A stretch of 64,000 bases of DNA from Candidatus Obscuribacteraceae bacterium (lineage in GTDB: Bacteria; Cyanobacteriota; Vampirovibrionia; Obscuribacterales; Obscuribacteraceae): positions 787,435-851,434 of the forward strand of contig JBGAHS010000002.1 in assembly GCA_044226015.1 (NCBI GenBank), read 5' to 3'. A program made the position numbers. Positions 24,001-30,000 of this stretch are shown one piece after another; position 1 is the stretch's first letter; each line of letters begins with the position of its first letter.

Positions 24001-27000
24001 CACTTAAAATTGACCCAATCAACCCGAGCTTTCATTGCGAGCGAGCACTCTGTTACATGGACATGGGCGAATACTCGAAAGCAGAAAGCGACCTCAATAC
24101 AGCAATTGAACAAAACCCAAATTCTGGAGATGCATTACTTGCTAGAGGAAGATTGTACCTACTGCTGAATAAACCAGACCTTGCTTTGAAGGATCTTCTT
24201 GCAAGCAAGAACCCTCACTCAACTTTTAACCCAGCGCTGCCCGATGAAGTGCCAGCGAACTTTTACAACGCTCCAGATTACTATCTCGGTGTTTGTTATG
24301 ACCAACTGGGTCAGCATGACAAAGCGCTTTCACACTATAACGAATCAGCAAAAGATGTAACCGGTGCAGATAGCGGATATTTACACCGCTATGCTGATCG
24401 CCCACAAGCGCTGAACAGTGCAATTTAATTTTACCTGGAACTAAAGATGCAGCCTAACTGGTAGCGCACGGATTCCCCTTCTGTGCGTTACCAGTTTTTT
24501 TTTGCTATCTACAATTAAGCAACTTGTACTTTGGAGAAAGCGCCTGAACTAAAATAGAAACAAAAGTAGAAATACGATTGCGATCAAATCGCCAGCGATG
24601 ATAGGATGGTTCTACGACCCTTCAGAAGGGAGGAATTATCATGACTGAAGAAGCAAAAAAACTCTATGAAATCGCCAGCAACACCGCCGTTAAATCCGCA
24701 GTGATGCACGTCCGAGTTAACGGACGAAGCAGAGACATAGCATTAGATCTTCTAGATATTTCCCCAAGCTCACCTGATGAATACATCAGAGAGAAGGTCG
24801 CTGCTTTTGTGGAATTGTCTCCGAAAGATCTTGAGTTCACAGTCGTAGAACGCCATGAAAATGGAAACATGACTGTGCGCCCAGAAGCGGTGTTCGGATG
24901 AAAAAGAGAGACGGATTCGATCCGCTCTCTCTTGTATCCAAAATTGCTGACAAAGAAAAGCAGCTAATCGGCTCAAAGTTTCTTGCGCCAAAATTAGGAA
25001 CAGGAAAAATTCGCCTGAAACTATCGGGAATCGCCTATCAGGTTGACGCCCCTGATAGCCCTGACGGTTGGGGAATATTCGAGCTAAAGGAAAATTCGAG
25101 GGCGACATATCTCGAAGCCGCACCACTAAACATGGTGCGGAACTATCTGCTTCTTTTGACGCAGGTCAGACTTGTTATTCTCGACAAATTCGAGAACGAT
25201 AACTGGTGGGCAATAGTCGCCGACCAGCAAGGACAAAAGCTACAGATTAACGGACCAGTGCCCGTACATTTAATTACACGCACAGCGCCATTCGAAACGG
25301 TTTACAGCCGCTTCGATGGAGCACAATTTTGGTTTGAATCAACAGACCGAAAGCGCGACCCGATGGTAGCAAACGAGTTACGAAAGTCACTTGAGAAAAA
25401 TACCGACCCGGCAGAACTTCAGTGCAAAGGCGCCGTGCCACAAGAGCGGCTCGCTTACAAGATCTTACATATGCGAAAAAATAAGGAGCGCGAAACTCCT
25501 GAGCCTCAAGACAACCGCAGTCGTATAAGTCGTGCGCTCGCTCACTCCGGCGCCGAACTTGATTCATTCTGGCAAGAACGCGATAGTAGTGTGACTACAG
25601 TTCGTTTTCGCATGGGAGATCAAGTGCGCGCTGTGAGTGTAAACACCGACAATCTTTCCGTTATAAGTTCGGGAATTTGTTTATCAGGAAGAGACAGCGA
25701 TTTCGACCTGAGCAGCCTTGTTGGGGTATTAAAAGAAGCAGAAGAAGATTACGACTACTACTAAGTCCGGCAATAGCTTATGGATGAGTCCAACAAAAAA
25801 AATCGAGCGAGCAAGAATGAGCAAACTTCATCACGAGAACATACACCGCGGCAGCGAAGCAATGAAAATGATTGCAAACCAACGACTCCATATTTGCGGA
25901 GCAGGCGCGATCGGCTCAAACCTGGCAATGAACTTAGTTAGAAGCGGATTCAAAAACCTGGTAATTATCGACAAAGACCGCGTTGAAGAAAAGAATCTGA
26001 GCACCCAGGCATATGGGCTTGACGATGTCGGCGGCAAGAAAGCAGACCTTCTAAGAAATTTGATCTTTCGCGACCTGGCCGAGAGTATAGACGCCCGCGC
26101 CGAAGAGCTGACCCACAATAATGTGAGCAAACTCCTAAAAGGAGCAAGCCTCGTGCTTGATGCTTTCGACAACGCCGCCTCGCGAAAGATTGTCTACGAA
26201 TTCTGCAAAGAAAATAGAATTGATTGCCTTCATGCTGGCGTGAATGGAGATTTTGCCGAGGTACGCTGGAACGAAAGCTACATCGTTCCACAAGAAAATG
26301 GACAAGACATCTGCGATTACCCGCTGGCGAGAAACTTGATCTTATTAACAGTTTCTGTGTGCAGCGAAACCCTTGTAAATTTTGTTCTCAAAACAAAGAA
26401 AGACAGTTTTTCAATCACACTGGGCGACATGTCCATAAATCACGAAACAGATTAGACCAAGTGACCTCAGTAATATTGACACACACACTTGCCTCTAATA
26501 AGATGCCATAAGTGGTTGAGGTCATTTTCTGAGACCTCTCCGATAAGAGGAAAAAGCGTGAACGAAGACGGTCCGAGTTTTACAGCTTCAACTCGCCAGC
26601 AGGCGCTCGGCTAATAGCCGCTGCGTCCGTTTCAGCACGCCTCGACACGCCACCACATTCGATACCAAACAATTTGACAAAGCTTCTCTTACCTTGTAGG
26701 GTAGTGATTACCGCGTGTGTTCCGACACGTGGAGCCTTACAATCAGGTACTCACTGAGCTGAATCTTTACGCAGCGCGACAAGCTCCACGAACTTACACA
26801 GGCGGCACTAAAAGGATGGTCATTGTGGCAGAAGACGGCCCGACACCGACAACTCGCTCTCACCTGGCACTCGGCTAATGCCGTTGTGCTGCTTTGCCAC
26901 GCGCAAAATGCGCCACCATATTTAGTATCATTTTCTGTTGACAGATTTGCAATTTCGATCTATTATCAAAATTACCAACTGTACTCAAACATTTGGAGCA

Positions 27001-30000
27001 TACAATCGCTTAGAACGAAAAGGTCGTGGGTTCGAATCCCACCGGGGCAGATGGCCCCGTAGCTCAGTGGATAGAGCGTTAAACTCTGCTCCCACAACTC
27101 GTACAGATGGCATCGTTTAAGTAAGAGGAGGTCGCCAGTCGTTATAGTGGACACGGGTGACATAACATGGATCGATCCGAAACACGCGCCCGGTAGTGAC
27201 TGGAGCGCGTGCTCCTCGTTTAAATCGCATGCCACTACATATGGTGCAACATTTATTTGACAAACACCATTCGGCGATCTAAATTAGTATTACTGCCTGT
27301 ACTCAAACAGACTGAGCTTACAATCTGGTACATTTTCCGTAACTGGAGAATGAGGTTCGAATCCTCCCCTGGGCGGGGTTCCGTCCATCAAAACAAACAG
27401 CTCTTTCAACTCGTACAGGCAGTGAATTTTACACCAATGACTCGATGCACCAGCGAACGCGCATTGTTCCAACATTGACTCATAGGTGAGCTACTGGACC
27501 CAGGGCACCGTCCCGAGGGTCCCCGTAGACTTGGAAGAGTCGTCAGGTTTGCTTCTGCTCGAATTGTGGTAATCTGGTTATACGCCTGTACTCACTGCTC
27601 GAGCTTACAAACCTTTTCAAGTTAGAAACAGCTCTGGCGACTCGTACAGGCCCTTTTTTTGCAAATTTTTGGTGAACACAATGAACAACGAGATCATTAA
27701 ATCTCTAGTAGATCTGGCCGTGCAGTCATTGCGCTCAATTGAGAATGAGCTGTTTGGCTCAAGACCCAACACGGCGCAGACACCACAGAGCCAATATCAG
27801 ACCACGTTCAACAGAAGCAATGGACGGGCACAAAGCAATAGGCGCACTAACAGCCGAAGAAGAACAGCACTCAATAGCAGCATTAGCAAAAGCAATGAAG
27901 AGGTAAGCAGCATGTTTGAATCACTAATAAATCAAACAGCTAATTCAAGTGAACAAGATTTCCGTCTGGCGATTCTCAACTCGTTGCTGCGCACACCACA
28001 CAGAGAGATCGAACCCTACATCCCTCTCTTTCGCTATGTGCATGACAGAGACCCTCTCTTCTTCGCGCACCTGGCTGTGTGGTACTTCGAAAACGGCACA
28101 GTGAGAGACTTGAAGCAACTTTTCGTCGCTTTTCTAGCTGTTTCAAAATTCTCAGACGAATTTCGCAGCGCCGGTGCAGCAATGCTACAAAAGATGGCAC
28201 CTTTCGAAGTAGAAAGAGTTCTTTCAATTATCAAAGGTCGCAAAACAAATGACGGAAAGAATGTCTCAGGTATTGTCGATACCGTACCACGTTCAGTGAA
28301 AACTACTATCGAACATTACTTGCGTGAACGCGAAAGCAATCGCGAAAATTTCGACCGTGTAGTTTTGCATGCACGCAAACCACTGAAAACACTTTATGCC
28401 TCACTGCGCATAAAGCCTGGTGAACACGCGCAGAAGGTGCTTTTCGACAATACTCCACCAGAGGACAGCAAACTATTTGCCCTCAAACTTATCGCAAAGA
28501 CTGATGACCCAACAGAGCAAGCAAAACTCATCGTTGAGCATGAGATTCCATACCGAGTGGCAATCTCAGGTTTGAAAAACGTGACACCTTCGGTTCTTAC
28601 AGCGCTTGTTTGCGCTATGACACCACAGGAGGTCATCAACAACCTTTCAAGCTTGCAAAAACGCGGGGCTATGCAAAACGAAGACTTGCGAAAAGTGATT
28701 GAATCAAAACTTGCCGATGCACAATCGGACAAGCGTGTTTCAGCTTTGAAAACCAGACAGGCACTTAAATCTGCAAATATCGATGAAAGCCTCGCTAAGA
28801 AAGTTGAGGCAGTCGGCGATAAGCAGATCAAAAACAAAGCCAAGATCAAAAAATCTACAGCATTATTGATCGATAAGTCTGGCTCGATGGAGATTGCAAT
28901 TGAAGTCGGTAAACAAACTGCGGCAATCATTGCACCAATTTGTGAAGCCGGTCTCTCTGTTTATGCTTTCGACACCATGTCTTACAAGATTGAACCTAAA
29001 ACAGGAAACAACTTATCTGATTGGGAGAAAGCATTCAAAGGCATCGCCGCTGGCGGTGGTACTTCGTGTGGTGTCTCAATCGAGGCGATGAGAAAACAAA
29101 AAGTAATTGCAGAGCAAATCATCATGGTCACCGACCAGGAAGAAAACAACCAGCCATACATGGCTACGGCTCTGCAAGCTTATGCAAATGAGTTCGGAGC
29201 AACTCCGGACATCATCATCGTGAACGTGGGACGCCACTCTCAGAGATTGGAGAAATCTCTAAGGCATGAGAACATCGCGGTCGACACCTTTGATTTCAAC
29301 GGCGACTACTACAGCTTGCCTAGCTTGCTGCCAATGCTTGCCGGTGGAACAAGGCTAGACTTGTTGATGGAAATCATGGATGTTCCATTGCCAGAACGCA
29401 GATTGCGCACACCTGCGATTGTGTGAGCACGCCAACCAAGCGAACCAAAAGCGCTGCTCTTGCAAATAGCGAGAACAGCGCTGCGCTTGCTTCTGGTGCT
29501 CACCTGGTGGCGCCATCAGGCTTCTAGTTCCCTCCCACCTGGGAGCGCCTGCTTCAAGCAGGCTTCTGAGCTAGAATTTTATTTCTTTCGGCTCTTGGTT
29601 GACTTTGACTTTGCGATCGGAACTGCCATCGCCTCTCCTTCCCGCAAACTTATCCATCAGCAGCGCCTTCTCGTCCGACGTTAGTTCTGGTCCAACTTTT
29701 TTCTGAAAATTGAGGTCTTTCTCCCAAAGCTTGCGGGCTTGCTCATCGTGAGGGAAGGCTAGCTTACTACTCAAGCGAGACGCTTCCTGCGGAGAAAGTG
29801 GCTCGCCTTTGCCGTACTGAGCTTTCAGGTCGCGCTCATGCAAAATACGGTAGGAGTCATCTTTGCTGTCAGGAAACGCCAGCTTACTGAAGAGTTTTGC
29901 GCGTTCTTCGCCCGTTAACTCAGGACCTTTCGCATCTGGGGGCTGAGACAACAAATCCTTCTCATGGAGCTTTCTATATGAAGCATCCTTCTCATCCGGA

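Follow-up and report, generated by a model that had tools for sequence, protein, structure and literature searches.

A divergent Ro60 homologue with an array of Y RNA-like units and a ubiquitin-like cassette: a possible RNA-baited ligase

In the 64,000-nt window analysed here (contig JBGAHS010000002.1 of Candidatus Obscuribacteraceae bacterium), a 504-aa protein that by its sequence is a divergent Ro60 homologue (27912..29426, + strand) is encoded behind an intergenic spacer with RNA units (26456-27911) and a same-strand cassette for a ubiquitin-like protein (Ubl), a 288-aa cysteine protein and an E1 enzyme. The probability that this locus specifies an RNA-baited ubiquitin-like ligase, in which a Ro60 ring would load swappable tRNA- or rRNA-mimicking baits and tag the protein that takes the bait, is put at roughly 0.45. 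The initial annotation had described a gene-free spacer upstream of the 504-aa protein and downstream of the Ubl, 288-aa protein and E1 genes, and its coordinates were confirmed.

Searched as a single sequence with phmmer, the 504-aa protein had its best PDB match in 9l5y/9kop (E 1.5e-5), which we take to be structures of the Ro60 of Thermus phage phiLo. A deep family profile matched human, frog, phage, and Deinococcus Ro60 structures at E 1e-18 to 2e-8, which places the earlier Ro60 call on stronger ground. This profile (A6) covered positions 23-394 of the 482 of 9l5y at E 1.4e-13, aligned to 1yvp 105-420, matched 9nen at E 1e-18, and ranked the first generic vWA (E 5e-5) behind the Ro60 structures; the homology extends across helical ring and vWA domain alike. 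The vWA MIDAS (DxSxS..T..D) is intact (D320, S322, S324, T383, D407) and invariant in 71/71 sequences. With the family models, the earlier values were reproduced (vWA_Ro60, E 0.0011; Rsr, E 0.03, not reaching the NCBIfam cut-off). Pfam TROVE matched neither this protein nor anything else in the genome; of 150 distant relatives listed, 74 likewise gave no match to it, and 2/74 passed the vWA_Ro60 cut-off. The clade comprises 522 clusters at 50% identity (E<1e-30), and one relative (n=1) carries a fused EF-Tu domain 3.

The Ubl (24641..24901, + strand, 86 aa) was modelled with beta-grasp topology (pLDDT 84), and among the matches listed nearly all were PB1, NEDD8, ubiquitin or MoaD folds (best VIA Z 5.4-5.6); Foldseek returned nothing at E<=0.001. 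Its C-terminus (...RPEAVFG) follows the pattern RPEA-x-[FY]-G, and the single Gly, already described as conserved, is invariant in 36/36 aligned sequences. The fold speaks against a weak match of the Ubl profile to ribosomal L23 (E 0.008), which was set aside. In the ESM Atlas, only unnamed clusters were found for the Ubl and no usable match for the cysteine protein. At one related locus (L061), the Ubl and the Ro protein form an in-frame fusion, and in six members of the Ro family the N-terminus matches the Ubl profile.

The cysteine protein (24898..25764, + strand; structure model with pLDDT 90) consists of an OB-fold region and a C-terminal alpha/beta domain and is a candidate Ubl acceptor in an E2 role. 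Residues 87-154 resemble OB folds (eIF5A at Z 7.6, rmsd 1.9, 56 aligned; further RNase R, IF1, and proteasome OB), and Foldseek and VIA searches with the whole protein gave OB folds only, and no UBC, among the matches listed. Cys261 lies within G-I-C-L-S-G-x-D-x-D-F-D-L and is kept in 75/75 sequences; the modelled domain order of helix, four strands, Cys and helix, together with G-I-C-L, presumably recalls UBC. The protein had been said to belong to no known family and to be no recognisable E2. Both statements hold: it has no Pfam family and no match to bacterial UBC proteins, Pfam gave no family common to two of 75 members, and in HHalign, with five bacterial UBC E2s as a shallow comparison set, the cysteine domain reached a probability of 0.2. 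The third gene (25784..26455, alternative start 25817, + strand) encodes a minimal ThiF/E1 adenylating enzyme (Pfam ThiF, 103 bits) with the nucleotide motif and with a Cys166 (numbered from the 25817 start) that is invariant in the 26 sequences aligned. Its former description as Cap2-like found no support, as Uba1 (E 3e-19) and TcdA rank above Cap2 (E 4e-11) in the profile search against the PDB.

Ro and the cysteine protein are obligately coupled genetically. Among 401 genomes, Ro was found in 46 and the cysteine protein in 47, 45 of the 48 carriers having both; two genomes with the cysteine protein and without Ro have stops within the cysteine-protein gene. The initial annotation had linked the Ro-Y RNA locus to the Ubl/E1 genes in this genus and at the same time suspected that the coupling may be local. 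The sharing by 45 of 48 carriers bears out the link and, together with the finding that 5/5 genomes without a cassette near Ro encode the cysteine protein elsewhere, shows that the coupling is not local. Its restriction to the genus found no support either: further phyla and viral contigs have the cassette too, in many cases accompanied by a JAB peptidase. Calothrix or Nostoc strains (L049, L050, L060) are among the carriers. Ubl, cysteine protein and E1 all lie <=8 kb from Ro in 33/49 fully flanked bacterial loci, and the 17 viral loci hold Ubl (11), cysteine protein (13), E1 (12) and JAB (12), the last being present in 10/80 bacterial loci. Prok-JAB scored above its cut-off in 4/4 relatives tested, and no JAB of the family was found in this genome (92% complete). 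No conserved target or protease gene was found near the locus, and the recurring neighbours included no sulfur donor or rhodanese gene and no RtcB or PNPase family. The RtcB genes of this genome lie far off and lack the scaffold, in line with the earlier remark that none is nearby.

The spacer contains four RNA units on the + strand, namely the three originally described and one that had been missed. The additional unit, U0 (26711..26805), combines the scaffold, with a compensated closing stem, and two hairpins of unknown model; it lies outside the training set of the covariance model (CM) and scored 29.9 bits (E 2e-5; fold z -3.9). U1 (26975..27110; CM E 9e-6, z -2.9) joins the scaffold to a circularly permuted tRNA in the order short anticodon-like hairpin, T arm, closed acceptor hairpin, and D arm. 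Within it, Rfam YrlA (RF02553) matched at 27019-27080 with 42.9 bits (E 5e-7), below the gathering cut-off of 69, as reported before. In U2 (27293..27422; CM E 7e-8, z -4.5), the scaffold carries an anticodon-like hairpin, a T arm and a further hairpin. The YrlA order of T arm, closed acceptor hairpin and D arm is present in U1 and not in U0, U2 or U3; a T-arm/D-arm module had been assigned to two units, but both arms are present in U1 alone, U2 having beside its T arm no more than a D-loop remnant. U3 (27582..27653; z -3.7), a member of the CM training set, is a minimal scaffold ahead of a T-run and might serve the Ro gene as a Ro-binding leader. The GNCGAAN0-1G Ro-binding motif of known Y RNAs occurs in none of the four units, its sole match in the spacer being at 27853, outside them, and the four RNAs have no rRNA likeness (best scores <=18 vs a null maximum of 28).

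Sigma70-like promoters on the + strand were assigned to U0 (26674..26702, TTGACA-N17-TAGGGT), U1 (26938..26966, 11/12 consensus) and U2 (27257..27285, 10/12 consensus). A fourth from the promoter scan (26476..26504) has no detectable RNA unit after it, and its counterpart precedes an RNA unit in three relatives. The promoter-like TTGACA boxes of the initial annotation find no support by count (6 found vs 5.4 in shuffles); the position favours them, as a TTGACA-N17 box precedes three of the four units by ~10 nt and five relatives have such boxes in the corresponding place. A palindrome 8-9 nt upstream of the -35 boxes was dropped as an operator, as its 1051 sites in the genome leave no regulon readable (358 sites on two contigs vs 12-33 for permuted matrices), and a connection with the TrcR regulon of Anabaena found no support. 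A genome-wide CM search, in which 150 of 1363 candidates were scored, recovered two of the four units and none elsewhere, and nothing was found by scaffold searches near RtcB, rRNA genes, and the five unlinked cysteine-protein loci.

Across the bacterial and viral loci, the scaffold was found near Ro in 83/97, with 231 units on the gene strand vs 8 on the opposite strand and, as previously stated, up to eight units per locus. Its two helices covary; helix 2 (93% paired, two-sided change in 3/5 pairs) is the fairer test because a paired helix 1 was already required by the pattern used to select units for the pair counts. The cargo varies, with permuted tRNA bodies, in-order tRNA bodies and 23S rRNA pieces besides minimal units, and some members score as tRNA or rRNA fragments. 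The YrlA-type order was present in 55/231 units, and no YrlA reached the gathering score in 9 related loci. The 61 anticodon-like arms carry 29 different triplets, a variety that could reflect relaxed selection in the loop and not an arms race. Cargo from 23S rRNA (sarcin-ricin loop (SRL), L11 region or helix 69) was detected in 23/80 bacterial loci, all cyanobacterial and the window locus not among them; these counts stem from other searches, as the pattern behind the 231 units is limited to <=200 nt and thus undercounts rRNA cargo. The SRL 11-mer directly follows the 5' part of the scaffold in 18/18 cases, the L11-region motif lies 73-77 nt beyond it in 16/18, and helix 69 was matched by 12 units. 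An additional L7/L12 gene stands within the array in 21/80 loci.

According to the proposed mechanism, the divergent Ro60 would bind these RNAs, its ring holding the constant two-helix scaffold, and the cargo, which sequence comparison identifies as look-alikes of translation RNAs, would display a tRNA elbow and anticodon arm, or the SRL, L11 region or helix 69. The bait would trap a protein that recognises the genuine RNA; anticodon nucleases and other ribotoxins are the most likely candidates, perhaps also translation factors. To judge from conserved residues and gene linkage, the E1 would adenylate the terminal Gly of the Ubl, carry it on Cys166 and then load it onto the 288-aa protein at Cys261; once recruited to the RNP, the 288-aa protein would tag the trapped protein. 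JAB, where encoded, may trim or remove the tag. The RNA would thus act as E3 substrate receptor and the array as a specificity library, used in cells against incoming or own toxins and in large phages against RNA-cleaving host defences. This bait reading is supported by the Ro60 homology, the obligate coupling and the Ubl-Ro fusions, by the chemistry suggested by the terminal Gly, the E1 Cys, the invariant partner Cys and Prok-JAB, by the constant covarying scaffold with swappable cargo, and by the L7/L12 genes and EF-Tu domain 3 fusion. It is weakened by a cysteine domain without detectable likeness to five bacterial UBC E2s, in a protein for which structure searches matched the OB part alone, by the missing Y-RNA motif, the lack of JAB here and of a conserved target or protease, by window RNAs without rRNA likeness, and by an anticodon variety that could be relaxed selection.

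Diverse cargo fits equally well a library of decoys, stabilised by Ro, that soak up nucleases or factors stoichiometrically while the Ubl tags Ro or the OB protein and so assembles, switches or clears the RNP. The Ubl-Ro fusions could mimic a permanently tagged Ro, and a promoter of its own for each long unit suits high output; some fused Ubl-like domains, however, lack the terminal Gly motif, and keeping a cascade of three or four enzymes in phages looks expensive if there is a single self-target. We consider this explanation rather unlikely. The SRL, the L11 region and L7/L12 together constitute the factor-binding site of the ribosome. The union of SRL and L11 region in single units and the extra L7/L12 gene at 10/17 SRL loci, like the EF-Tu domain 3 fusion and a tmRNA-like element ahead of the array in two loci (L064 and L050), would suit a translation shut-down or takeover in which the cell's own tRNA- or ribosome-binding factors (EF-G, EF-Tu, RelA, synthetases, release or recycling factors) are captured and tagged under stress or infection. 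We regard it as unlikely, given that fast-changing anticodons and patchy spread suit conflict more than housekeeping, and that viral copies have tRNA-like and minimal cargo, with the SRL 11-mer in 0/17 viral loci.

That the cascade acts on RNA itself, by sulfur transfer, adenylation or Ubl attachment at damaged ends kept inside the Ro cavity, within a repair or clearance pathway like that of RtcB/PNPase-linked Rsr systems, appears doubtful: the OB folds resemble RNA-binding domains, TcdA, a tRNA-modifying E1-like enzyme, ranks high for the E1, and known Ro60s process damaged RNA (PMC4201824), but a recurring sulfur donor or rhodanese gene is missing, JAB suggests amide-linked conjugates, and the RtcB genes of this genome are distant and scaffold-free. 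Highly improbable, finally, is an RNA-independent protein cassette beside cis-acting leaders or decayed tRNA genes. In its favour, 37/38 minimal units are no more than 450 nt ahead of the Ro gene, with a T-run after 16/38 (vs 38/178), Rfam scores the in-order units as tRNA, and the SRL unit often stands immediately upstream of the cysteine-protein gene; these points are set against long units with their own promoters, up to eight per locus, and a covarying scaffold maintained around unrelated cargo.

The locus bears on the role of bacterial Ro60-Y RNA particles and on the reason for the tRNA mimicry of Y RNAs, as in various phyla and in phages one scaffold with tRNA and rRNA look-alikes is linked to a ubiquitin-like cascade. 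At minimum, a large Ro60 clade and an RNA family missed by Rfam and Pfam are added. If the RNA-bait reading is true, the system would be a first ubiquitin-like ligase specified by RNA. Bacteria and very large phages would then have a trap for ribotoxins or translation factors that is encoded in RNA and can be reprogrammed; the conflict between phage and host over translation would gain a new branch, and the system could be used as a modular tool.

Among prokaryotic Ubl-E1-E2-JAB systems, Bil and Bub are presumably comparable. Operons of this kind (PMC1779556, classes 6a-6e) share the beta-grasp Gly-ended protein, E1, Cys partner and, where relatives encode it, JAB, and differ from the present cassette, with its single terminal Gly, OB-fold partner without recognisable UBC, and tie to Ro60 and RNA; neither vWA nor TROVE is mentioned in PMC1779556. 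Bacterial Rsr with YrlA/YrlB/Yrn1 (PMC4201824; bioRxiv 10.1101/312249) likewise has RNAs of ~70-200 nt next to a Ro60 homologue and on its strand, with a long closing stem, a permuted tRNA-like domain in some units, and bacterial and phage carriers. Unlike those RNAs, the present family lacks GNCGAAN0-1G; it conserves another scaffold, forms arrays of as many as eight units, and has in-order tRNA and 23S rRNA cargo, and many units retain the anticodon arm, whereas Salmonella YrlA is without the loop; the Ro protein is missed by Pfam TROVE and its partners are Ubl, E1, cysteine protein and JAB instead of RtcB/PNPase, which do not recur. The phage-borne phiLo Ro60 (PMC12135203) has a similar size (~500 aa) and the same MIDAS and is co-linear over most of the profile; in the accessible part of that source, its Yrl1/Yrl2 RNAs carry a CGAA motif, unlike the units here, and no Ubl cassette is described. 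Viral genomes with Ro60 and ThiF/E1 genes are also known from the Nidhogg Asgard viruses (bioRxiv 10.1101/2021.07.29.454249), likened here by description; the accessible text treats the two as separate genes and the E1 as a hijacker of host ubiquitin, and describes no RNA or cassette.

The initial annotation did not include the JAB gene found in relatives, the copies in phages or the cargo resembling rRNA. An in-frame ATG at 27681 could lengthen the Ro protein by 77 aa, and N-terminal extensions of a similar kind are present in three of its close relatives.

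As a single query, the 504-aa protein encoded at 27912..29426 (+) (Ro) matched TROVE chains (9l5y/9kop; E 1.5e-5), and a profile of 84 close relatives returned 522 clusters at E < 1e-30 from 1.84 billion representatives searched. A deeper profile, consisting of Ro and 70 of 150 listed representatives, placed the five Ro60 sequences in the PDB on top (E 1e-18 to 2e-8), with one match covering positions 23-394 of 482 and the best non-Ro60 vWA below all five (E 5e-5). This ranking bears out the Ro60 homology claimed in the initial annotation; the MIDAS is invariant in 71 of 71 sequences, and Ro is, judged by sequence, a member of the Ro60 superfamily. 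The clade was missed earlier because Pfam TROVE matched 0 of the 74 Ro representatives scanned and the survey in PMC4201824 was confined to genomes with an annotated TROVE protein. Ro relatives with an EF-Tu domain 3 fusion or an intein, and two loci with adjacent Ro gene pairs, were also observed (P0190, P0181, L026, L052). In the window, Ro has a possible in-frame N-terminal extension (27681-27911) and a second SD preceding the internal ATG, similarly to the related loci L002, L003, and L047, perhaps yielding two isoforms.

The cassette comprises a ubiquitin-like protein (Ubl, 24641..24901), a 288-aa Cys protein (24898..25764), and a ThiF/E1 protein (25784 or 25817-26455). The Ubl has a predicted beta-grasp fold, and the conserved C-terminal Gly ascribed to this 86-aa protein proved to be a single, terminal, invariant residue. 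The E1 has an invariant Cys; its description as Cap2-like did not hold, as Uba1 and TcdA were closer by profile. The first half of the 288-aa protein resembles OB-fold structures (Z up to 7.6, a level without bearing on function), and the Cys of its C-terminal domain is invariant in 75 sequences. The order of elements and G-I-C-L in this domain are reminiscent of an E2, but HHalign against a small set of five bacterial UBCs (extracted from 5 of 17 loci) gave a probability of 0.2; the protein is a candidate E2 and a candidate Ubl acceptor.

Complete cassettes were found in 42 of 80 bacterial loci (the best 80 of 176 from GTDB genomes); among the 49 with full 8-kb flanks, 33 had all three genes and six had none. 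They occur in Obscuribacterales, cyanobacteria, and, per record titles, Chthonomonadaceae, Clostridia, Deltaproteobacteria, Spirochaetaceae, Chloroflexia, and Acidobacteriota. Within 401 Cyanobacteriota genomes, Ro was present in 46, the Cys protein in 47, and both in 45, for which no P value is given because related genomes are not independent; of six genomes with unlinked Ro, five were checked and all five encoded the Cys protein elsewhere. This co-occurrence and the complete cassettes in several phyla dispel the earlier worry that the linkage is local, and the cassette is part of the Ro system. Seventeen viral loci (16 from IMG/VR and one 595-kb phage record; six contigs >350 kb) carried Ubl (11), Cys protein (13), E1 (12), and JAB (12); JAB was present in 10 of the 80 bacterial loci, and a search of the window's genome found none. 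A Ubl-Ro fusion is encoded in L061, and six Ro representatives have an N-terminal Ubl profile match.

All four genes are present as annotated, as is the spacer of 1456 nt (26456-27911), in which the YrlA match was reproduced (42.9 bits). As the spacer contains repeats, a covariance model was trained on 35 short units taken from the window and from its relatives. It recovered all three proposed small-RNA genes (26975-27110, 27293-27422, and 27582-27653, the last belonging to the training set) and added a fourth (26711-26805), at E 2e-5 to 3e-10, with the next match at E 0.03. Each of the four has a more stable predicted fold than its shuffled versions (z -2.9 to -4.5), and three are preceded by a TTGACA-N17 promoter ~10 nt upstream, likewise in five relatives. 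By motif and by score, these RNAs fall outside YrlA; some cyanobacterial units could be among those listed as YrlA in PMC4201824 Table S1.

Further elements were observed in the spacer. The palindrome GCCACCA-N4-TGGTGGC lies 8-9 nt 5' of -35 boxes (26648-26667, 26912-26929, 27231-27248) and has ~1000 sites genome-wide, far more than in permuted controls; it is a candidate global binding site or repeat of the lineage. Tiny ORFs with SD, GTG start, and the motif [ED]DGP (26558-26614 and 26825-26878, 18 and 17 aa, both ending A-L-G-stop; L001:4411, L047:7007) differ in the motif at third codon positions, and a hairpin overlaps the ORF end. A structured element with GAGGAG/CTCCTC closure (27124-27220, z -3.4) directly 3' of the 26975-27110 unit is conserved in L001, L003, and L047; Rfam gave no family of note for it.

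The scaffold shared by the units runs from helix 1 through an internal loop, helix 2, single-stranded UACA, and a variable cargo to the partner strands. Across the 35 units of the training set, 95% of cells were paired (slid controls 24-50%; helix 1 pairing partly due to unit selection), and 9 of 12 pairs changed on both sides. The model gave 247 matches in 81 loci (three on the opposite strand); of 16 viral loci, 10 had matches, 29 in total. The claimed maximum of eight RNAs per locus was confirmed in L032. A pattern-defined set of 231 units (97 loci) comprised 59 minimal units, 55 permuted tRNAs, 51 in-order D-anticodon-T bodies with the acceptor stem continuous with the scaffold, 29 with a T arm and other hairpins, and 37 without a T arm. 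The RNAs are modular, and the minimal unit probably also serves as Ro-gene leader. Anticodon-like arms occurred in 61 of the 231 units with 29 different triplets. Among Nostoc-like genomes, 14 matching units combined nearly constant stems with six different triplets, and a second unit had 7 triplets among 15 copies; triplet variation from relaxed selection would look similar. L055:4600-7800, between Ubl and Ro, holds ~20 Rfam tRNA matches among scaffold units, and a tmRNA tRNA-like domain without coding part (Rfam tmRNA 38 bits, E 8e-12) lies 5' of cyanobacterial arrays (L050:5027-5107, L064:5219-5302).

A set of 221 distinct units was compared with the window genome's own 23S gene. Positions 1126-1170 were matched by five units (E ~1e-8 to 6e-7) and 1974-2006 by 12 (E 1e-8 to 1e-3), with one match in the opposite-strand control (E 0.01); local alignment scores were 32-51 (null maximum 28 in 908), and Rfam LSU models exceeded their cut-off at two such places. 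In units matching 1126-1170, the cargo starts with a 13-mer identical to positions 2719-2731, whose 11-mer core had 18 occurrences, spread over 17 of 80 loci (other strand 0), always directly 3' of the scaffold's 5' part and in 16 cases with the 1126-1170-type motif 73-77 nt downstream. We take 2719-2731 to be the sarcin-ricin loop, 1126-1170 the L11-binding region, and 1974-2006 helix 69-70. 23S-like cargo was present in 23 of 80 loci, all cyanobacterial per record titles; local alignment gave no rRNA likeness for the window's four units. An L7/L12 gene lies inside the array in 21 of 80 loci, and all three carriers checked have a second, better-scoring L7/L12 in the genome. A 240-aa protein family without Pfam match is encoded within cyanobacterial arrays (L060:6424-7152 and 22 other loci), often 5' of the extra L7/L12. 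T-loop insertions resembling 16S rRNA 1397-1424 (L066:7473-7632, score 32; L072:7130-7289, score 27; null maximum 28) could represent a repeat of cyanobacteria.

Ribotoxins are known to target anticodon loops, the sarcin-ricin loop, and helix 69-70, which also serve translation factors as docking sites. As these sites are mimicked, they point to a putative RNA-baited ubiquitin-like ligase, the favoured but tentative reading with a probability of 0.45, and also to an alternative in which the baits would catch and tag the cell's own translation factors. The system is predicted to work like a Ro60-Y RNA particle. Its homologies, the conservation of catalytic-type residues, the coupling of the genes, the scaffold, and the cargo are established here; in the proposed mechanism, Ro would bind the scaffold, the cargo would serve as bait, and Ubl would pass from E1 via Cys261 to the captured protein. 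The Ro60/RNA/cassette system is testable, real, widespread, and undescribed in the literature searched: neither the cassette nor rRNA-mimicking Y RNAs came up in full-text searches, which covered few subscription papers and included PMC4201824, PMC12135203, bioRxiv 312249, PMC7824862, PMC10272220, PMC1779556, and bioRxiv 2021.07.29.454249.

Elsewhere in the window, a strong terminator (17 pairs, 24456-24504) lies between the upstream TPR gene and the cassette, and two gene pairs at 32997-33851 and 35039-35674 look toxin-antitoxin-like by their translations, one joining a small antitoxin-like gene to a GNAT-like one and the other resembling RelE/ParE.
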